From Sinorhizobium meliloti (lineage in GTDB: Bacteria > Pseudomonadota > Alphaproteobacteria > Rhizobiales > Rhizobiaceae): a DNA stretch of 32,000 nucleotides. The translations under genes and the position numbers were made by a program. Below, piece after piece: positions 1-22,509 of the stretch. The notes beneath the pieces were generated by a model. The model had not been told where the DNA came from. It saw only the letters and a program-made list of their open reading frames with translations, and did no database searches. The stretch covers positions 1,500,001-1,532,000 of the forward strand of contig NZ_JAGIOS010000003.1 of assembly GCF_017876815.1 (NCBI RefSeq), read 5' to 3'. Numbering within the stretch: the stretch's first letter is position 1; each line of letters starts with the position of its first letter.

Positions 1-176
1 GCGTATCCGGAATCGGCGGCCTGAAACTGGATGCGATTTATCGTGCCACCGGGCGCACCACGGGCCTCGTTGCCGGCGAGCATGGCCAGCATGTAATAGG
101 CGCCAAGTTCCCCCTCGATGTAGGTGCCGGCTCCCCCTCGAGCGGCAGGCGCTCCGGAATATCTTGCTTCGTTCAT
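1..176 (-). CDS. Hypothetical protein, N-terminal 58 codons only (gene runs off the left edge)
   Basis: Reverse-strand ATG at 176-174 with GAGGG (183-187) 6 nt upstream, open to the window edge. Translation is MNEARYSGAPAARGGAGTYIEGELGAYYMLAMLAGNEARGAPGGTINRIQFQAADSGY. It is missing from the ORF track because it is open-ended. Family not recognised with confidence. Confidence 0.5.
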   Translation of the reverse strand, partial: MNEARYSGAPAARGGAGTYIEGELGAYYMLAMLAGNEARGAPGGTINRIQFQAADSGY

Positions 177-261
177 AACCTGCCCTCTTTCGAGCAGATA
201 ACTTACGAAATACTCGCGTTAGCTTCAACTTGGGTTCGGTCCAGAGCGGTCATGGTCGCCG

Positions 262-279
262 AGAATTCAAGGGAATTCT
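262..279. promoter_or_regulatory. Perfect 7-bp inverted repeat AGAATTC-AAGG-GAATTCT in the leader of the left-edge gene
   Basis: Read directly from the sequence. Lies 86-103 nt upstream of the ATG at 176. Could be a hairpin or an operator; function unknown. Confidence 0.25.
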
Positions 280-352
280 ACGCAGATCTCTAGCGTCGTG
301 AATTCCGCTGTGATCGACGTCCGCTTCCAGGCGTCGGTGTGGTTGCTCCAAC

Positions 353-541
353 GACCGAAATGGGCGCACACCCGCCGTCCGTGCTAACGAATTTATTGTC
401 CGCTTCGGGTTACTAAATCGCGTCGGTAGCCAAAGTGCACGGTGTTTGAAGGGAGCCGTTCTTCACGAGCGGCGAACGGCTTGTTGCTAGGATGTTCACG
501 TTCTGGGCCAAGAAGATCGCATAATGTATCGTCAGGAACAC
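353..541. repeat. Copy 1 of a ~190-bp non-coding repeat (conserved arm plus dif-like core)
   Basis: Hand alignment to 20227-20410 plus 21604-21613 gives about 85% identity with five 1-2 nt indels. Outer flanks are unrelated. No reading frame is conserved between the copies. Confidence 0.85.
514..541 (+). other. dif/cer-like candidate Xer recombination core (copy 1)
   Basis: Reads agatCGCATAA-TGTATC-gtcaggaacac. Positions 518-529 (CGCATAATGTAT) are identical to 12 consecutive nt of E. coli dif (GGTGCGCATAA-TGTATA-TTATGTTAAAT). The right arm is diverged. Confidence 0.5.
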
Positions 542-1621: not shown

Positions 1622-2461
1622 ATGCACATGCTTTCAAAGATGATGACGTCCGCTCTGCGGGCGACGGCGGCGCTCGCCCTGACGTTGGGTGTTTCGACTG
1701 CGACTGCCTCGGCTCAGACGGCAGAAGGCTATTGGCAGGGCGTTCAGAAATCCGGCACGCTGCGCTGCGGCGCCGCGGTTGCCCCGCCCTATGTGATGCG
1801 TGATCCGGCCAGCGGTGAGTATTCCGGCTTCTTCGCCGATCTCTGCCGCGAATTCGCTGAAGTGCTGCAGGTGAAGCCAGAATTCGTCGATACGACTTGG
1901 GACAACATTGTCGCGGGGCTTCAGGCCGGCAAATGGGATCTCTCCCTGGCGCTGAATCGCACGCCGGCGCGCGCCATGGCGGTGCAGTTTTCGATCCCGG
2001 CGATGGAGTACCAGATCTCTCTCGCGTACAACAAGGACAATCCGAAGATTCCGGCGGGCGCCACCTCGGTTGCCGACATCGACAAGGCCGATGTTACGCT
2101 CGCCGTCATGTCCGGCACGGCCCAGGACAAGGCGATTTCAGCCGCAGTCAAAACCGCGACGATCCTGCGTCTTCCGACTAATGACGAAACGCGTCTCGCC
2201 GTGGTCTCCCGTCGGGCCGACGTTCTCGTCGATGCCTCAGATACCAACCAGTTGTTCACCCAATCGAACCCGGATTGGGCGGTTGCGATGAACCCGACGC
2301 CGGCCCTCGCAAAGCAGGGCGTTGCCTTTGGCCTGCCGCATCAACTCTCCGCCGCGGATGTTGAAGTGGTCAATATCTTCCTCGAAGAGCGGGTCGCGAC
2401 CGGCCACGTCGAGGAACTGATCCGCAAGGCCGTCGACCAGGTCCTGAAGGCCAGCAACTGA
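1622..2461 (+). CDS. Polar amino-acid ABC transporter substrate-binding protein (family 3 SBP), signal peptide
   Basis: I trimmed the track ORF 1502..2461 to ATG 1622 (or 1628), which gives MHMLSKMMTSALRATAALALTLGVSTATASAQ as a signal peptide. SBP_bac_3-like body. Confidence 0.85.
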   Translation: MHMLSKMMTSALRATAALALTLGVSTATASAQTAEGYWQGVQKSGTLRCGAAVAPPYVMRDPASGEYSGFFADLCREFAEVLQVKPEFVDTTWDNIVAGLQAGKWDLSLALNRTPARAMAVQFSIPAMEYQISLAYNKDNPKIPAGATSVADIDKADVTLAVMSGTAQDKAISAAVKTATILRLPTNDETRLAVVSRRADVLVDASDTNQLFTQSNPDWAVAMNPTPALAKQGVAFGLPHQLSAADVEVVNIFLEERVATGHVEELIRKAVDQVLKASN

Positions 2462-2468
2462 ACCGTGC

Positions 2469-2492
2469 CGGGGCCGCCTCCCGGCGGCTCCG
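2469..2492 (+). promoter_or_regulatory. Intercistronic GC-rich stem-loop after the SBP gene
   Basis: cggggccgcc-tccc-ggcggctccg forms a 10-bp stem with one G-U pair. No clear U-tract. This is the usual position for SBP/membrane-component stoichiometry control. Confidence 0.45.
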
Positions 2493-2522
2493 CTCCCTGT
2501 CTTAAGGAGGAGAGTTGGGACG

Positions 2523-3293
2523 ATGTCGGACACAGCTGCGCTGGTCAAAATCGAGGGACTGCACAAGAGCTATGGCGGCGTCATACAGGTGCTGCAAGGC
2601 CTGGATATCGAGATGAAGGCCGGCGACCGTGTCGTCGTCATCGGCCCCTCCGGCGGTGGCAAGTCGACTCTTCTTCGGGTGTTAATGGGGCTCGAGCAAA
2701 TCGATAGCGGCTCGATCCTCTTCGGCGGTAAGCCCTACATCTCCGCAAACGGCTCCGGCAAGACCGTCATCGATGCCAAGGTGCGACGCTCGATCGGCAT
2801 GGTGTTCCAGCACTACACGCTGTTTCCGCATCTCGACGTGATCAGTAACCTGATCCTAGCACCGACGAAGGTGAGGGGCGAAAACAAGGCGGTAGCTCGC
2901 GAACGGGCGATGGCGCTGCTCACCCGCTTTGGACTGGCGGCCAAGGCCAATGCCTATCCGGCCCAGCTATCAGGCGGCCAGAAACAGCGCGTGGCGATCG
3001 CCCGTGCCCTGATGCTCGATCCAAGGCTGATGTTGTTCGATGAGGTGACCTCGGCGCTCGATCCCGAGCTCGTCGCCGAAGTCGAGCAGGTGATCATGCA
3101 GCTCGCCCAGCAGCAGATGCCGATGGTCATCGTTACTCACGACATGTGGTTCGCCAAGAACATTGCCTCCCGCGTGATCTTCTGCGCCGGTGGCGTGGTC
3201 GTCGAGGATGGTCCGCCGGAACAGGTGCTGGGGGCGCCGAAAGAGGAACGCACCCGCGAATTTATCGAGCGCGTCTTCCACATCAAACACTGA
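2523..3293 (+). CDS. Amino-acid ABC transporter ATP-binding protein
   Basis: Walker [10 protein letters not shown], signature LSGGQKQR, Walker [22 protein letters not shown] upstream. Confidence 0.95.
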
Positions 3294-3304
3294 GGAGCGA
3301 CGTC

Positions 3305-3973
3305 ATGAATTACAGTTTCGACTTCGCGTCCGTGTTTCGCAATTTCGGACCGCTCTGGGAAGGCCTCTGGGTTACGGTTCAACTCACGATCGCGGCCAAC
3401 GTCATTGGGCTGACGCTCGGTTTCCTGCTTGCACTGCTCGTCATGAGCCGCTGGGCAGTGATACGGCTCCCTGTCACCCTCTTCATCGAATTCTTCCGCT
3501 GCACGCCGGCGATCATCCAGATCGTCTGGTTCTTCTATTGCGTCCCGATGCTGTTCAATGTTTTCCTCGGCTCGGTGACGATGGGCATCATGGCGCTTGG
3601 CCTCAATCTCGCGGCCTTCAATGCCGAGGCCTATCGCGCCTCGATCCAGGCTGTTCCCCGAGAGCAGCTGGATGCGGGTATAGCGCTCGGCCTCAACCCG
3701 TTCCAACGGATCCTCTACATTGTCCTGCCGACGGCGGTCCGCAGTTCAATCCCGGTCCTGCTCACCAACGGGATCGGCATCTTCCAACAATCCGCACTGG
3801 TCGCGATCGTGGCCGTTCAGGACCTAATGTATCAGGGCAAGACACTCGCAACGCAGACCTATCGTCCGATCGAAACCTTCACCATCGTCGCGCTCGTCTA
3901 TTTTGCCCTGTCGTTTCCGGTCTCGCAGATCGTCGGCTATCTGGAACGCCGCCGCGAAGCCATGGCAAGCTGA
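3305..3973 (+). CDS. Amino-acid ABC transporter permease (His/Glu/Gln/Arg/opine family)
   Basis: I trimmed the track ORF 3146..3973 to ATG 3305, which has GAGGAG upstream. 222 aa, multiple TM segments, EAA-like motif region. Confidence 0.9.
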   Translation: MNYSFDFASVFRNFGPLWEGLWVTVQLTIAANVIGLTLGFLLALLVMSRWAVIRLPVTLFIEFFRCTPAIIQIVWFFYCVPMLFNVFLGSVTMGIMALGLNLAAFNAEAYRASIQAVPREQLDAGIALGLNPFQRILYIVLPTAVRSSIPVLLTNGIGIFQQSALVAIVAVQDLMYQGKTLATQTYRPIETFTIVALVYFALSFPVSQIVGYLERRREAMAS

Positions 3974-3984
3974 GGAGACCAACG

Positions 3985-4653
3985 ATGATGAGCTTCAACT
4001 TCGCGATCGTGCTCAAGTTCCAGGAGGCTCTCCTTCTCGGCCTCTGGACCACACTCAAGCTCACCCTGATCTGCATCGTGCTCGGCTGCGTTCTCGGCTT
4101 CCTGCTGGCGCTTGCCCGCACATCGAAAAGAGCCATGCTGCGGGGCGTTTCCGGCATCTACGTAGAATTCTTCCGCGGCACACCCGTGCTCGTGCAGTTG
4201 TTCTGGATCTTCTTCTGCCTGCCGCTGATCCTCGGCGTTGAACTCTCCAACATGGCGTCGGGCATCATTGCCCTTACGCTCTACATGGGCGCGATCAGCA
4301 GCGAGACGTTCCGGGCATCGCTCAAATCCGTTGGCCGTGAGCAACTGGACGCATGTGTGGCGCTGGGGCTTTCTCCTTGGGTCCGGACGACGAGCGTCGT
4401 TCTCCCGCAGGCGGTGCTGCGCGCGGCACCCACGCTGCTTTCCAATTGCGTCAGCCTCTTCAAGGAAAGCGCGCTCGTCTCGGCCGTCGGCATGGCGGAC
4501 CTGATGTTCGTTGGCCAGAACATCTCCAACAACACGGCGCGGCCGGTCGAGGTGCTGACCGTCGTCGCGCTGATCTACTTCGTCATCGCCTTTCCGCTAA
4601 CGCGTGCCGTCACGGTTGTCGAACAACGCATTCTCAAGCGGCTGGCCGTCTGA
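3985..4653 (+). CDS. Amino-acid ABC transporter permease (second subunit)
   Basis: ATG 3985 with GAGGAG upstream. 222 aa, paralogous to 3305-3973. The N-terminal part of track ORF 3190..4653 is an out-of-frame overlap. Confidence 0.9.
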   Translation: MMSFNFAIVLKFQEALLLGLWTTLKLTLICIVLGCVLGFLLALARTSKRAMLRGVSGIYVEFFRGTPVLVQLFWIFFCLPLILGVELSNMASGIIALTLYMGAISSETFRASLKSVGREQLDACVALGLSPWVRTTSVVLPQAVLRAAPTLLSNCVSLFKESALVSAVGMADLMFVGQNISNNTARPVEVLTVVALIYFVIAFPLTRAVTVVEQRILKRLAV

Positions 4654-4689
4654 ACGCGCCAACCGCCTGGACCCAAAATGGAGACCCTC

Positions 4690-5568
4690 ATGAAACTCTC
4701 AGGCGTCATGCCCGCACTCGTCACCCCCTTCGATGCCAAGGGCAAGATCGACTTCAAGGCATTGGAAAAGCTGCTTGTCCACCTGCGCGACGCGGGGGTT
4801 ACAGGCTGGGTGCCGAACGGCTCGACCGGGGAATATTTCAGCCAGTCGACGGCGGAGCGTCGGGAAGTTCTCCAGGTCGTCAAGGACTTCGCCAAGCCGG
4901 GTGAAATTTTGATCGCCGGCACGAACGCACCTGCCACGCGCGAAGTCATTGAACAGACCGCGATGGCAAAGGAGATCGGCTACGACACGGTCCTGCTCGC
5001 GCCTCCCTTCTACACACGCCCGACCCAGGAAGAGCTCATCAAGCATTACGAGACCGTGCTTTCCGCAGTCGATGTCAATCTCGTGCTCTACAGCTACCCC
5101 GCAAAGGATGGCTCGGACATCAGCTTCGAACTGATGGATCATTTCGCGGACAATCCGCGCGTTATCGGCATCAAGGAAAGCTCCGGCGTCTTGCAGCGCG
5201 CGATCGACATCGCAAGCCGCTATGAGGGTAAGATCCAGCTCGTCAGCGGGTCGGACGACATCGCGCTCGATTTCATGTTCTGGGGTGCGGACAGCTGGAT
5301 CTGCGGCCCGTCCAACTGCATGGCCAAGGCCTGCTGCGATCTCGACCGAACCTACAAGTCGGGGGATTTGGACAAGGGCCGCGAGATGATGAAGACGCTC
5401 TACCGCGCGATGAATATCCTCGAGTCCGGCAAGTTCGTCCAGAAGATCAAATATGGCTGCGAATTGCAGGACCTGCCGGTCGGCGAGTGCCGCGCGCCGC
5501 TTGGGCCCCTCACGGATGACGAAAAGGCCGAGTTCCGCGCCGCTATGGAACCGATCCTGAACTGGTGA
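4690..5568 (+). CDS. DapA/NAL-family class I aldolase-type enzyme; in context likely 1-pyrroline-4-hydroxy-2-carboxylate deaminase
   Basis: MKLSGVMPALVTPF... is a typical DHDPS-family N-terminus, with GSTGE and IKES (Schiff-base Lys) motifs. GGAGA lies 5 nt before ATG 4690; the alternative ATG 4678 lacks an SD. The function is inferred from neighbours. Confidence 0.85.
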   Translation: MKLSGVMPALVTPFDAKGKIDFKALEKLLVHLRDAGVTGWVPNGSTGEYFSQSTAERREVLQVVKDFAKPGEILIAGTNAPATREVIEQTAMAKEIGYDTVLLAPPFYTRPTQEELIKHYETVLSAVDVNLVLYSYPAKDGSDISFELMDHFADNPRVIGIKESSGVLQRAIDIASRYEGKIQLVSGSDDIALDFMFWGADSWICGPSNCMAKACCDLDRTYKSGDLDKGREMMKTLYRAMNILESGKFVQKIKYGCELQDLPVGECRAPLGPLTDDEKAEFRAAMEPILNW

Positions 5569-5576
5569 GCCGCCAT

Positions 5577-5599
5577 GGCCGGGCGGCTCGCGCCCGGCC
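5577..5599 (+). promoter_or_regulatory. Intercistronic GC hairpin (ggccgggcg-gctcg-cgcccggcc)
   Basis: 9-bp perfect stem between 5568 and 5629. No U-tract. Confidence 0.35.
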
Positions 5600-5628
5600 G
5601 ATCTTGAAGCCTGACGGGAGAGCGCAGC

Positions 5629-6861
5629 ATGACCACCGTCGTTATCGGCGCGGGCATTATCGGTACGACCATCGCCTACGAACTGCAAAAGCGTGGGCGG
5701 CGGGTCGTCCTGCTCGACAAGGGCGAGGTCGGATGTGGCGCGTCCTACGGCAACATGGCGTCGATCGCCGTGACGGAGTTCATGCCGGCCTCGCGCCCGT
5801 CGATCTGGAAACAGATCCCGGGCTGGATGCTTGATCCGGAAGGACCGGTTCGGGTCCGCCCCGGTTACATGCCGAAACTACTTCCCTGGTTCGCTCGCTT
5901 CGTTGCGGCGTCTCGGCCCAGCAAGCTGCGTCAACTTGAGGCCCAGGGGGCGGTTCTTTGTAAGCGCGTCTATGAGGACCTGCTGCCGCTGCTGCGCGAG
6001 ACGGGACTGGAGGGTGAGCTGACGGAGGAGGGCTGCCTCTCGCTCTATAGCAGCGAGGCGGAGTTCCGCGCCGACCGCGAGCATATCGAAATACTGGAGC
6101 ATTTCGACTTACCGCACCGGCGGCTGACGGGCACTCAAGCGCGGGAACTGGAGCCGGAACTCTCCGAGAGCATTGGTATCGCCGTGCTCTTGCCACAAAA
6201 CCGGAGCCTTCGCGACCCGTTTCGCCTTGTGCAGAGCCTTGCGCAGCGCTTCACCGCGCTCGGCGGCGAGTTTCGGCGCGGTGCGGTGGGCGGTTTCGAC
6301 CGCTCCGACCGCATCTCCGCCGTCCGGCTTGTCGGCGGCGATCCTATTGCCGCCGATGAGGTGGTGATCTGCGCTGGGGCTCATAGCGGCTTGCTGTCGA
6401 AGATGCTGGGCGAACCGATGCCGCTCGAAACCGAGCGCGGCTATCACACGCAGATCATGTCGCCCGGCATTTCCATGCGTCACTCAATCATCTGGCCTGC
6501 CCGGGCCTTCATGGTCACACCGACGGCGGGCGGCATCCGCGTCGGCGGAACGGTCGAGATGGCGGGTCTCGATGCCGCACCCGACTATCGGCGTTCAAAG
6601 ATTACCGTTCGGCGGGCGCAGACGGCGTTGCCCAACCTGCGCTGTGAGGACTTTTCCGAGTGGATGGGCCATCGCCCGGCCTTCCCGGATACCGTTCCAG
6701 TCATTTCGGCATCGGCGAAGACACCAGGTGTCTTCTACGCCACCGGTCACGGTCACCTGGGCGTCACCTATGCGGCAACCACCGCGCGGCTGATGGGCGA
6801 TCTGATCACCGGCGCGACACCGCCCGTCGATATACGTCCCTATCGCATCGACCGGTTTTGA
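5629..6861 (+). CDS. FAD-dependent oxidoreductase (DAO / D-amino-acid dehydrogenase family); likely D-hydroxyproline dehydrogenase
   Basis: N-terminal VVIGAGIIGTTIAYEL dinucleotide-binding motif, 410 aa. The context is a hydroxyproline-type pathway. Confidence 0.85.
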   Translation: MTTVVIGAGIIGTTIAYELQKRGRRVVLLDKGEVGCGASYGNMASIAVTEFMPASRPSIWKQIPGWMLDPEGPVRVRPGYMPKLLPWFARFVAASRPSKLRQLEAQGAVLCKRVYEDLLPLLRETGLEGELTEEGCLSLYSSEAEFRADREHIEILEHFDLPHRRLTGTQARELEPELSESIGIAVLLPQNRSLRDPFRLVQSLAQRFTALGGEFRRGAVGGFDRSDRISAVRLVGGDPIAADEVVICAGAHSGLLSKMLGEPMPLETERGYHTQIMSPGISMRHSIIWPARAFMVTPTAGGIRVGGTVEMAGLDAAPDYRRSKITVRRAQTALPNLRCEDFSEWMGHRPAFPDTVPVISASAKTPGVFYATGHGHLGVTYAATTARLMGDLITGATPPVDIRPYRIDRF

Positions 6862-6873
6862 AAGGAGTTCTCG

Positions 6874-7572
6874 ATGACCGATAAGGTTTGCCTGATCACC
6901 GGTGGCGGCAGAGGCATGGGCGCGGCGGTGGCGCGTGAGATGCACGCGCGCGGCTACAAGCTCGTCCTGATGTCGCCTTCGGAAAATTGCGAAACGCTGG
7001 CCGCAGAGCTCGGCGGCATCGCCCGCCGTGGCGTGGCGCAAAGCGCTGCTGATCTCAAGGGCATCGCCGATCTCGCCATGTCCACTTATGGCAGGATCGA
7101 CGCGGTACTGAACCATACCGGCCATCCCCCAAAAGGCGACCTTCTCGAGATCACCGACGAAAACTGGGATCTCGCCAATGACATGATCGCCAAGTCGGTC
7201 ATCAGAATGGCACGGCTGGTGACACCGGTGATGGAGGCGCAGGGCGGTGGTTCGATCGTCAACATCACGACTTATGCGGCGTTCGAGCCGTCACTTTGGT
7301 TTCCTGCGTCCTGTGTCTATCGCGCCGGGGTCTCCTCCTTCACCAAGCTCTATTCGGACCGCTACGGTCCGAAGAACATCCGCATGAACTGCCTTCTCCC
7401 AGGCTTCACCGACAGTCTCGATGTCGGCAAATTTGCAGATCTGACAGCGCTCAAGAGGATCGGCCGGGTTGAAGAACAGGCCAAGGCTGCGGCTTTCCTG
7501 CTCAGCGACGATTCCAGCTACATCACCGGCCAGAGCCTTCGAGTCGATGGCGGGCTGACGCGTCACATGTGA
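6874..7572 (+). CDS. Short-chain dehydrogenase/reductase family protein (atypical active-site spacing)
   Basis: TGGGRGMG cofactor motif and Rossmann fold. The expected YxxxK reads YRAGV, with no Lys at +4. Confidence 0.8.
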   Translation: MTDKVCLITGGGRGMGAAVAREMHARGYKLVLMSPSENCETLAAELGGIARRGVAQSAADLKGIADLAMSTYGRIDAVLNHTGHPPKGDLLEITDENWDLANDMIAKSVIRMARLVTPVMEAQGGGSIVNITTYAAFEPSLWFPASCVYRAGVSSFTKLYSDRYGPKNIRMNCLLPGFTDSLDVGKFADLTALKRIGRVEEQAKAAAFLLSDDSSYITGQSLRVDGGLTRHM

Positions 7573-7579
7573 GGACACC

Positions 7580-20226: not shown

Positions 20227-20410
20227 GACCGACATGGGGCGCAAACCCGCCGTCCCTGCGTAACGAATTGATTGTCCGCTTCGGATTACCAAATCGTGTC
20301 CGAAGCCAAAGTGCACAGTGATTGAAGGGATCCGTTCTTCACGAGCGCGTTGGACGGCTGGTTGCTAGGATGTTCACGTTCTGGGCCCAACGAGACCGCA
20401 TAATGTATCA
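20227..20410. repeat. Copy 2 of the ~190-bp repeat (arm, left core arm and spacer); the remainder is at 21604-21613 beyond the IS
   Basis: See the alignment to 353-541. The core reads agacCGCATAA-TGTATC-a[IS]atgggaacac. Confidence 0.85.
20403..20410. repeat. 8-bp target-site duplication ATGTATCA (left copy; right copy at 21596-21603)
   Basis: Identical octamers lie immediately outside both inverted repeats. Confidence 0.9.
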
Positions 20411-21595
20411 GGCCCTTATCAACCAAAGACAGCGACTGCTGATTTGACGATGATCCCACCATCCGGACTTCTGCAGTTGACGGCCGGTCGCGGCGCGAAA
20501 GATTTGCAGCAATTGCAGCGCCGGCGGCACTCGCGACCACAGGGTTTCATGCGTTCCCTGCCATTTCGGGTTTTCCGAACTGCCTGGCCCGTCACAATGC
20601 GCTGTGACCAGCGGAAACCGATCTCGTGGAAATACAGGTCGGCGTGCTGCGGGCTGATATGATGAAAGACACCGGCAATTGTGCGGCGGACGCGGGCATT
20701 GAAACCTTCGACCGAATTGACATGAACGGCGTCACGAACGTATTCGCGGCTGGAGTGCTTCACGGTGTCATGCCTGGCATAGTTCTCGCCAAGGGCCATG
20801 AACGCTGTCGCCTCATCGCTCATCAAATAGGCGTCGGGGTCGATCTGCGCTTCGGCCGCGCGCGCCGCTGCACGGAGCGAAAGACCAGTCACCACCGCAG
20901 CACGCGCGTCACCGGCCGGAGTGCCGGGCGTGACGTCATCTGGCCGTTGAACGATCACCATGACAGGCGTCTTCTGCGTATTCGGCAGACCTTTTCGGCC
21001 TCGTCCAGGCGGTGGATCGTTCGGATTTATTCTTGCTCGCCCACCGAGGTAAAAATGGTCGATCTCCACCGTGCCATCGAGCATGTGCTCGCGCGCCGCC
21101 ATGAGGCGCAGCGCGTGTCCCATCCGCCAGGCCGTCGGTTGGCTTACCCCCAGAGCCTCGGCCAGACGCACCGAGGACAAACCTTTATCCGACTGCAGCA
21201 TCAGCCACATGCCCTTCAGCCAGACACTCAAAGGAAGCTTTGTGGAATGCAGCGGCGTGTGTGTCGTCACCGTAAACTGGAACCGGCAATCGCTGCTGGA
21301 GCATTGATAGAGACCGGGACGCGCACGCCGCATGCCCATATCGCGCCCGGCGATCGCGATCGAGCGTTTGTAACCACAGGCAGGGCAAACTCTCCCACCC
21401 GGCCACACCATGCTTTCCAGCAACCGCCGACACTGCTCCTCATCGCGAAACGCCACGACCATATCTTCCGCGGTCCGAATGTTGGTAAGCGCTGCAAGCA
21501 TCTCCGACATTCTCATCTCCTTCGGATCATGCCCGAAGAATCGCACGATAGCCCTTGAGCATCAAGCTTTTTGCTGTCTTTGGTTGATAAAGGCC
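20411..21595 (-). mobile_element. IS1595-family insertion sequence, 1185 bp
   Basis: 23-bp terminal inverted repeats, 22/23 matching: ggcccttatcaaccaaagacagc at 20411-20433, and its complement at 21573-21595. 8-bp TSD. A single transposase ORF with a Zn-ribbon and an ISXO2-like DDE region. Confidence 0.9.
20419..21510 (-). CDS. IS1595-family transposase (possibly frameshifted near the C-terminus)
   Basis: Start MSEMLAAL at 21510 with AAGGAG 6 nt upstream. Contains CPACG...CSSSDCRFQFTVTTHTPLHSTKLPLSVWL, the transposase Zn-ribbon. The stop codon lies inside the left IR. Confidence 0.85.
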   Translation of the reverse strand: MSEMLAALTNIRTAEDMVVAFRDEEQCRRLLESMVWPGGRVCPACGYKRSIAIAGRDMGMRRARPGLYQCSSSDCRFQFTVTTHTPLHSTKLPLSVWLKGMWLMLQSDKGLSSVRLAEALGVSQPTAWRMGHALRLMAAREHMLDGTVEIDHFYLGGRARINPNDPPPGRGRKGLPNTQKTPVMVIVQRPDDVTPGTPAGDARAAVVTGLSLRAAARAAEAQIDPDAYLMSDEATAFMALGENYARHDTVKHSSREYVRDAVHVNSVEGFNARVRRTIAGVFHHISPQHADLYFHEIGFRWSQRIVTGQAVRKTRNGRERMKPCGRECRRRCNCCKSFAPRPAVNCRSPDGGIIVKSAVAVFG

Positions 21596-21792
21596 ATGTA
21601 TCAATGGGAACACAGCGTCGGCCTTGGCCGGGGTCCCTACGCCCGCCTGTTGCTTACCATTGGGAGAACGCTGTCACCAGCCTAACCCGACGTCGCGCGA
21701 AGGCCCTCTAGCTCGCAAGTTGCAAAAGAGCAGTGCGCGACGGGGCACACGAATGAAACTGATCGTTCCCGCGTTCGCATGGCGCCAGCCCA

Positions 21793-22509
21793 TTACGTAC
21801 CCTCGTCGACATCCTTCACATGTGTCAGGAGACCCTGGCCGCCGCGCTCGATATCCTCACGGATGGCATCACGCGCGCCTTCTCCGTCGCCGGCCTGTAG
21901 CGCCGCGATTACGCGTAAGTGTGGGTGCGGCTCCCAGTCCGGCAGTCCGGCGTCGTAGAGATGCGACAGGATCGGCCCGCAGCGCACCCAAAGCCCTTCG
22001 ACGATATCGTAGACGATCGGCATGCGTCCGAGGCGGCACAGGCCCAGGTGGAACTCGGTATTGAGGTCGACCGCCTTTTCGAACTGTTGCGAAAGATGGC
22101 ACTGTGAGATCTGCCGATGGATAGCCTCCAGCCCGTCGATTTCCTGCTTGGACGCAAATCTGGCCGCGGCCGCGGCCGCGCGCCCCTCCAGATCGGTCCG
22201 AACCGCGCGGATCTCGAGCAACTGGTCAAGCGTGAGGGTGGGGACAACCACGGTTCCGCGTGCGTCGAGGGTCAACGCCTTCTCGCTCACGAGCCGCAGC
22301 AGCGCCTCGCGCATCGGCGTCGCGCTGATCCCGAATCGTGCCGACATCGGCCGTAGGCGCAGGAGCGCGCCCGGTCGCAACTGCCCGCGCATCAGCGCTT
22401 GGCGCAGGTCGGAATAGGCGCGATCGCTGAGGTTCTCCTTGACGATCGGCTGCACCCAGTCGGCCTCTTCCAGGGTCTTCGCACTATTTTCTTGCAGGCT
22501 TCTTGACAC
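21793..22509 (-). CDS. GntR-family (FCD) transcriptional regulator
   Basis: 238 aa with HTH region AYSDLRQALMRGQLRPGALLRLRPMSARFGISATPMREALLRL. GTG start at 22509. Divergent from the ADH operon. Confidence 0.88.
   Translation of the reverse strand: MSRSLQENSAKTLEEADWVQPIVKENLSDRAYSDLRQALMRGQLRPGALLRLRPMSARFGISATPMREALLRLVSEKALTLDARGTVVVPTLTLDQLLEIRAVRTDLEGRAAAAAARFASKQEIDGLEAIHRQISQCHLSQQFEKAVDLNTEFHLGLCRLGRMPIVYDIVEGLWVRCGPILSHLYDAGLPDWEPHPHLRVIAALQAGDGEGARDAIREDIERGGQGLLTHVKDVDEGT

Follow-up and report, generated by a model that had tools for sequence, protein, structure and literature searches.

A family of dif-like sites on megaplasmids of Sinorhizobium, Ensifer and Rhizobium, rejoined between strains within a 6-bp centre

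The window (the whole stretch of 32,000 nucleotides of Sinorhizobium meliloti DNA analysed here, to which coordinates refer unless a strain or locus is named) carries two copies of a repeat in direct orientation, both on the plus strand. Copy 1 begins with a conserved 'type A' region (353–513), a candidate accessory sequence that aligns with copy 2 and borders on the XerC-like arm. It is followed by the XerC-like arm AGATCGCATAA (514–524), the central (crossover) region TGTATC (525–530), which is a natural recombinant junction relative to strain SM11, and the XerD-like arm GTCAGGAACAC (531–541), whose outer GGAAC occupies 535–539. In copy 2, the type A region, as aligned with copy 1, lies at 20227–20392, the XerC-like arm AGACCGCATAA at 20393–20403 and the centre TGTATC at 20404–20409; the XerD-like arm AATGGGAACAC (21603–21613) resumes after an insertion sequence (IS). 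About 160 nt to the left of the core are kept between the copies, and nothing is kept to the right of GGAACAC. The first-pass annotation had given the same two core sequences, which we re-read from the window, and had placed the conserved stretch of about 165 nt on the XerC side only; both the alignment of the copies and the conservation profile of the family show this one-sided layout.

In both cases a GntR/FCD regulator gene on the minus strand (711–1430 and 21793–22509) has its 3′ end shortly before the copy in the direction of transcription, and the next gene on that strand starts beyond it; this arrangement may be a coincidence or a rule of module boundaries. The gene to the left of copy 1 (1–176, minus strand) continues in SM11 as L136 2–1624. 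Its protein is more than 540 amino acids long with weak matches to NACHT and AAA_16, and it may be a STAND-type defence NTPase. Three places in SM11 match the stretch 1–340, and the duplication at the 90-kb locus covers just 156–530, comprising the upstream leader, the gene start and the v1 repeat.

The IS that splits copy 2 (20411–21595, minus strand) is 1185 bp long, with a transposase ORF at 20419–21546. Pfam domains DDE_Tnp_IS1595 (1.5e-33) and Zn_ribbon_IS1595 were identified, and the element is flanked by an 8-bp target duplication, ATGTATCA, at 20403–20410 and 21596–21603. Empty sites with the 8-bp overlap are present at loci L128 and L129. Removal of the IS and of one duplication had been used in the first pass to reconstruct copy 2, and strains RCAM1750, ml21 and Rm41 carry exactly that IS-free sequence, ...GACCGCATAATGTATCAATGGGAACAC.

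The first comparison of the core had been with E. coli dif, and in the form quoted there the 12 nt of CGCATAATGTAT are indeed identical to it. Set against the dif sites of Rhizobiales, the resemblance is closer than had been held. The dif sites of S. meliloti are GGATCACATAA-GATAGA-TTATGGAACTA on the chromosome, AAATCAGATAA-CGCATG-TTATGGAACAT on pSymB and AAATCAGATAA-TCAACA-TTATGGAACTA on pSymA (PMC13342612, Supplementary Data 2c). That of A. tumefaciens is TAATCGCATAA-GATATA-TTATGGAACTT, and the sites of Brucella and M. loti have the same arms, in the form (A/G)TCGCATAA-N6-TTATGGAAC (PMC2731167). Comparison of these published sites gives ATC(G/A)(C/G)ATAA-N6-TTATGGAAC for Rhizobiales dif, with TTATGGAAC(T/A) as the host XerD arm. 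Of the 11 positions in the XerC-like arm of copy 1, 9 agree with GGATCACATAA, the chromosomal dif arm of S. meliloti, and ATCGCATAA in the core shares all nine of its bases with the dif arm of A. tumefaciens and Brucella. The arms of the core are spaced by exactly 6 bp. On the XerD side, the core matches the outer (T)GGAAC of dif and has a variable GACT-like tetranucleotide in place of the inner TTAT. Judged by these matches, ATCGCATAA reads as the canonical XerC arm of Rhizobiales and GGAAC as the outer part of the canonical XerD arm in the correct 6-bp spacing, with just the inner four bases differing. The arms of host dif and the CGCATAA and GGAAC of the core are thus related; the XerD arm, described earlier as diverged, differs in its inner four nucleotides, but its outer GGAAC equals the host XerD arm and is kept throughout the family. 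A search pattern built solely from the published Rhizobiales sites (ATCRSATAA-N6-TTATGGAAC, at most three mismatches) found a single match in the 32-kb window, at 516–539, with 0.01 expected. The centre TGTATC is unlike all three S. meliloti dif centres (GATAGA, CGCATG and TCAACA).

By blastn, the repeat was found at 914 places in 235 plasmid records. The S. meliloti megaplasmids (records of 1.2–1.8 Mb) have 10–18 places each, in both orientations, and copies also occur in Ensifer and Rhizobium. The site pair proposed around one 20-kb module exists as two direct copies in the window, but these belong to a family of many members on the same replicon. An exact scan for the 18-nt AAGATCGCATAATGKATC in one genome per species gave at least 120 loci; among the matches listed, Sinorhizobium, Ensifer and Rhizobium together account for about 105, and a further 13, in other phyla, are chance matches. 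The logo of 125 distinct rhizobial copies is AAGATCGCATAA-TG(T/G)ATC-(G)(A)(C)N-GGAAC, and conservation drops abruptly after GGAAC. The XerC-like arm is near-invariant in the 125 copies, although the conservation of left arm and centre is partly imposed, since most copies were gathered with the exact 18-nt pattern. Copies found through the upstream region alone, independently of that pattern, have the same core with single changes. The GGAAC (positions +5 to +9) is kept at four or more of its five positions in 114 of the 125 copies, and it is absent from all 13 chance matches in other phyla among the matches listed. The inner four nucleotides of the right arm are variable, with GACT as the consensus. 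From the alignment, each site would consist of a XerC arm, AGATCGCATAA, a shared centre (TGTATC, or TGGATC in Rhizobium) and a right arm, NNNNGGAAC. The TGGATC centre accounts for 19% of the copies and is found in Rhizobium (for example L003, L004, L026 and L047), and TGTATC, in Sinorhizobium and Ensifer, accounts for 79%; a difference at the level of the genus is expected if the sites within a genome must match each other.

In the comparison of plasmid records, none was identical to the window, and the closest derivation is from pSmeSM11c of strain SM11 by loss of one segment. Window 1–530 is 100% identical to SM11 285448–285977, and this match ends at the last base of TGTATC. Window 448–25000 corresponds to SM11 348276–372831 with 99.9% identity, so that the window from 531 onwards follows SM11 from about 348.36 kb. 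At the first place, SM11 reads v1...CGCATAA-TGTATC followed by AACAGGGAC, and at the second, in the same orientation, v2...CGCATAT-TGTATC followed by GTCAGGAAC. The window junction reads v1...CGCATAA-TGTATC followed by GTCAGGAAC, and the window is without the approximately 62.4 kb that SM11 has between the two direct sites. The markers that flank TGTATC are base 524 on the left (CATAA versus CATAT) and base 531 on the right (G versus A), 7 nt apart, which confines the exchange to the interval between them. The six bases shared there do not suffice for homologous recombination, nor for an assembly mis-join.

Junctions of this kind were observed in other strains as well. Left halves (the stretch of about 165 nt, the arm and TGTATC) and right halves (NNNNGGAAC and the flank) re-assort between strains, and the junction is always TGTATC. 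Before the relBE/formate dehydrogenase flank (AAAAGGAAC; AACAGGAAC in SM11), five different left halves occur in AK76, SM11, AK21, ml21 and Rm41; the GTCAGGAAC flank has four across strains and the AATGGGAAC flank two. Conversely, the left half of copy 2 is joined to AATGGGAAC in the window, RCAM1750, ml21 and Rm41 and to AAAAGGAAC in AK76, and its diverged (94%) ortholog in GR4, ...GATCCCATAATGTATC, continues into ACCGGGAAC. AK76 has about 70 kb between the copy 2 left half (site b) and its usual right flank, with TGTATC at both junctions in direct orientation, and another left half, A′, stands before the right arm and flank of copy 2 there. In Rm41, a stretch of 35 kb holds three sites, all direct. 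The right flank always keeps its own four variable bases and GGAAC, and the left half keeps markers such as CATAT or CCCAACGAGACC. In every case, the upstream context changes for kilobases along with the left half, which indicates exchanges between pre-existing sites rather than insertions of small elements. The breakpoints between strains, proposed as a check of the site, coincide with TGTATC for the window and SM11, AK76, AK21, ml21 and Rm41. Taken together, the resemblance to host dif and the rejoinings exactly within the 6-bp centre show that the core is no chance match but a genuine site-specific recombination site, present in many copies. The junctions indicate that strand exchange between two sites takes place inside the 6-bp centre; one site contributes its left half to the product and the other its right half, and the DNA between them (14–70 kb in the cases seen) is thereby deleted, inserted or inverted.

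The variation between strains that is bounded at the cores had been expected for the interval of 20 kb between the two window copies. It was found next to this interval instead, in the approximately 62.4 kb upstream of copy 1 and the approximately 70 kb at copy 2 in AK76. The 20-kb interval itself is present in all strains that have both sites, and it was never seen present or absent as a unit in the strains compared, nor was the excision proposed for it observed among them. Within it, the hydroxyproline-type catabolic and ABC transporter block (1631–12873) is absent from RCAM1750 and AK76, with the junction in L128 and L127, and the halved coverage of the window suggests that it is also absent from AK21. 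This junction is plain (...GGGGAATGCACATG followed by ACGACGACGTGG...) and unrelated to the cores, the indel being an ordinary deletion away from any core. Two further candidates were rejected. A cut-and-paste transfer of the block from copy 1 to copy 2 between AK21 and AK76 does not account for AK21, which has two copies of the v2 left half, and the supposed new integration of a 'module 2' in AK76 proved to be the common SM11-type junction. A composite empty site, with A′ joined to GACCGGAAC, was searched for and none was found.

The site is also a recurrent target of IS elements. Members of three families (IS1595, IS110/IS1111 and IS21) are located within or beside the same 30 bp, and IS1595-type and IS110-type elements each insert repeatedly at one position. 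An IS1595-type element lies one base after TGTATC in the window, L077 and L098; the left halves are unrelated, so the three insertions are independent. For a DDE transposase, such specificity (the same core base in at least three copies) is unusual. This IS, which has the inverted repeat GGCCYTTATCAACCAAAGACAGC and makes an 8-bp duplication, is also present in L125, to the left of AAGATCGC. Two apparent alternatives to the conserved left arm turned out to be IS elements. 'Family B' is an IS110/IS1111-type IS within the site. It is 1.4 kb long, has the domains of a DEDD transposase and is located between ...GGCCAAGAAGAT and AAGATCGCATAA, always in one orientation. It is present at L017 (3722–5126) and at about 20 other loci (L010, L011, L014, L028, L083, L096 and others), where ...AAGAT precedes the IS and AAGATCGCATAA follows it. 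In the 3′ non-coding region of this element are TATGCGATC, which is complementary to the XerC-like arm, and AAGATTGGCC; both look like seekRNA guide segments that would be aimed at the core site. An arm complement of the TATGCGATC type is expected in an RNA-guided IS of the IS110/IS1111 family (PMC11187229). 'Family C' is the end of an IS, 12 nt upstream of AAGATCGC, and this end is IS21-type in L077, the sole locus where it could be checked. Homing of IS elements to Xer sites is known for Acinetobacter pdif, and ISRel26 has been reported adjoining Xer sites in Rhizobium. In L122, at about 1400–2512 of the 4-kb left-flank extract and just upstream of the core, the last 94 nt or so of the IS110-type element are repeated in tandem about 13 times with a period of 85 nt.

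No recombinase is annotated in the ml21 region colinear with the window, which holds just regulators, transporters and catabolic enzymes; this agrees with the first-pass reading of the window itself. We also clustered the ORFs within 3.5 kb of 127 sites. The IS110-type transposase recurs, but no other transposase and no recognisable family of recombinases does, and the remaining recurrent families are generic, most clusters being judged from N-terminal sequence and not by Pfam. With no linked recombinase, a trans-acting enzyme is needed, and from both arms we infer host XerCD as the obvious candidate. The sites are of the Xer type and probably used by host XerCD, through which 14–70 kb modules would be deleted, inserted and reshuffled. 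The best explanation, which we hold to be somewhat better than an even prospect, is a family of dif-like sites on the megaplasmids of Sinorhizobium, Ensifer and Rhizobium with exchange within the centre and host XerC/XerD as the presumed enzymes.

For such a system, the host XerC/XerD pair would act in trans on the sites. The common centre would make the members of the family compatible with each other and not with the three replicon dif sites (GATAGA, CGCATG and TCAACA), and recombination within the family could thus proceed without fusing replicons at dif. The inner TTAT is found in every Rhizobiales dif, and XerD would bind less well where a GACT-like tetranucleotide takes its place. This variability of the inner right arm points to weak binding of XerD and to an exchange that may be led by XerC, or to another recombinase. 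The stretch of about 165 nt could serve as an accessory region, as in cer/psi. In 50 rhizobial copies, its conservation rises toward the core, being strongest over about 60 nt (CGGCTTGTTGC...GTTCACGTTCTGGGCCAAG) and fading over about 165 nt. D-type sites have only about 20–30 nt of conserved left sequence and look active, and hence the full stretch is not required for the exchanges seen.

Other readings of the sites have to be weighed against the use of host XerCD. The sites could be real, with a dedicated tyrosine recombinase encoded elsewhere (shufflon/Rci-like or integrase-like) and the likeness to dif incidental. The inner right arm does depart from every Rhizobiales dif, and a conserved left arm and centre with one loose arm is also the pattern of the R64 sfx sites. 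The family, moreover, is limited among the matches listed to Sinorhizobium, Ensifer and Rhizobium, whereas XerCD is universal. Yet no such recombinase recurs beside the sites or occurs in the window region, the left arm matches the Rhizobiales XerC arm perfectly, and in the right arm the outer bases specific to XerD are retained in the exact 6-bp spacing; a chance likeness of two arms is improbable, and we consider a dedicated enzyme unlikely. An ordinary family of dispersed repeats, recombined by RecA through homology and resembling dif by coincidence, would be suggested by the up to about 85 nt that copies share at high identity and by a published survey that links the movement of genes within S. 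meliloti replicons to repeat elements generally. This is very hard to reconcile with the 6 nt of identity between the markers flanking the window/SM11 junction, with the diagnostic bases (CCCAACGAGACC, CATAT) that lie 6–17 nt from the junction in AK76 and AK21, and with the D-type and type A left halves, which share too little for homologous recombination and yet swap right flanks.

The sharp right end of the conserved sequence, the unrelated flanks beyond it and the short conserved motif 4 nt outside this end could also be taken for a transposable element, for which the stretch of about 165 nt and ...CGCATAATGTATC would form an end that inserts next to NNNNGGAAC targets (a one-ended, rolling-circle or target-specific transposon). 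We regard this as improbable, since no transposase is associated with the sites except in the IS elements that interrupt them, kilobases of upstream context change with the left half as in a rearrangement between two pre-existing sites, and the window and SM11 differ by a simple deletion between two direct sites. Least credible of all is a role of the repeat as a small RNA gene, as a leader or as the 3′ part of a small ORF, in which case the core would belong to a transcript or provide stop-codon context. The repeat is intergenic, a frame in copy 1 (...MFTFWAKKIA*) ends at the TAA of CGCATAA, and several substitutions fall on third positions. This frame is shifted in copy 2, however, and several Rhizobium copies, with the flanks read by eye, have an in-frame TAG (TTT TAG GCC), and a coding 3′ end was rejected for these reasons. 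An RNA gene was rejected as well: an Rfam search of the repeat gave no match at the gathering threshold or at E = 1, no tRNAs were found in the sequence searched, and the single-strand DNA fold of the repeat has no excess structure, being weaker than that of shuffles (z = +1.68). The junctions at TGTATC would in any case be left unexplained by an RNA or coding function. The spacings, judged by eye, do not fit a sigma-54 or sigma-70 promoter.

Several known recombination systems share features with the rhizobial sites. As with the Acinetobacter pdif (xrs) modules, there are many dif-like sites per plasmid, the modules are bounded by sites and their contexts differ between strains, toxin–antitoxin genes adjoin the sites, IS elements insert specifically beside the XerC arm, and no recombinase is linked to the sites. 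The Acinetobacter modules are small with alternating (C/D then D/C) sites, whereas the rhizobial arrays are direct with segments of 14–70 kb; the inverse orientation typical of pdif was not seen in the two window copies or in the three Rm41 sites, which are all direct. The pdif sites have variable centres and good XerD arms, and the rhizobial sites one shared centre, a degenerate inner XerD arm and, unlike pdif, a conserved region of about 165 nt on the XerC side. In this last respect, they resemble cer of ColE1 and psi of pSC101, which comprise a XerC arm, a short centre and a XerD arm and are flanked, on the XerC side alone, by a further 160–180 bp or so of conserved sequence. The first pass had pointed to this layout, and for the type A copies, with a core and about 160 nt conserved on the XerC side only, it holds. 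The function does not carry over. The sites cer and psi occur once per small plasmid and serve multimer resolution through a topological filter that allows deletion only. Here, there are at least 10–18 places per megaplasmid, pSymA and pSymB each have their own published dif, and a 70-kb insertion was found; a topological filter of this kind does not fit, as it would forbid the insertions and inversions observed, and a multimer-resolution function of the cer/psi type is not supported. At cer/psi-type sites, accessory proteins (PepA together with ArgR or ArcA) bind the accessory sequence. No conserved ARG-box-like motif stands out in the consensus of 50 rhizobial copies, and an ARG-box-like half site noted by eye in copy 1 falls in a poorly conserved stretch of it.

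The IMEX elements (CTXphi, TLCphi and the gonococcal genetic island) use the host recombinase, have no integrase and a defective XerD side, and are probably recombined by XerC-led exchange. The rhizobial sites likewise have no integrase of their own and a defective XerD side, and a host enzyme and XerC-led exchange are predicted for them. IMEX integrate at chromosomal dif, whereas the rhizobial sites are dispersed on megaplasmids and not located at a replicon dif, have a centre unlike that of the resident dif and recombine with each other. Integron attC and Vibrio VCR arrays also have a species-specific repeat at the end of each unit, direct arrays, a fixed exchange point and targeting by the IS1111 family. 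They depend on imperfect palindromes folded as single strands and on a linked intI; the rhizobial sites show no excess folding and no recurrent integrase nearby, and their units are tens of kilobases long.

Structural variation of rhizobial symbiotic megaplasmids is usually ascribed to IS elements and homologous recombination. Full-text literature searches, including those on S. meliloti repeat families, returned no description of the site family, of the core sequence or of pdif/dif modules in rhizobia, which agrees with the first-pass remark that no description of such an architecture around rhizobial catabolic modules was known; the nearest report is the passing note in an IS paper that ISRel26 abuts Xer sites in Rhizobium. 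A wider proposal is that the megaplasmids of Rhizobiaceae undergo genus-wide, host-Xer-driven module exchange through dozens of compatible dif-like sites with one crossover sequence, and that this would be a main engine of pSymA-type plasticity. We put this forward tentatively, with the chances judged slightly against it. Blocks (14–70 kb seen) with catabolic, defence and toxin–antitoxin genes would then be excised as circles and re-inserted or inverted, and the accessory genome of pSymA-type replicons would have an engine of plasticity distinct from IS- or homology-driven rearrangement. Already as observed, a defined 28-bp site accounts for the precise breakpoints of the 14–70 kb differences among S. 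meliloti strains. If host XerCD is responsible, the 'dif module' principle would extend from small Acinetobacter resistance plasmids to megabase symbiont replicons, in a different architecture, with sites in direct orientation, one common centre, a conserved region beside the XerC arm and degeneracy in the inner part of the XerD arm. The site also offers a simple predictor of mobile pSymA blocks and a natural target for engineered deletions and insertions, and it gives a reason for the homing of at least two IS families (IS1595-type and IS110/IS1111-type) to one 30-bp stretch, next to which an IS21-type end is located.

Two smaller observations concern the neighbourhood of the sites. Toxin–antitoxin pairs (RelB/RelE, CopG/RelE and ParD/ParE) lie approximately 0.1–1.1 kb from several of them (L133 1608–2206, L002 2841–3376 and L128 2340–2935), recalling the toxin–antitoxin modules of Acinetobacter pdif and integron arrays. 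At L127 15099–15176, L132 3888–3965 and L133 3898–3975, near a formate dehydrogenase gene in three strains, the type A left region (...GTTGACGTTCCGGGCTAAAG) runs directly into AACCGGGAC without arm or centre, as though the 18-bp core had been lost.
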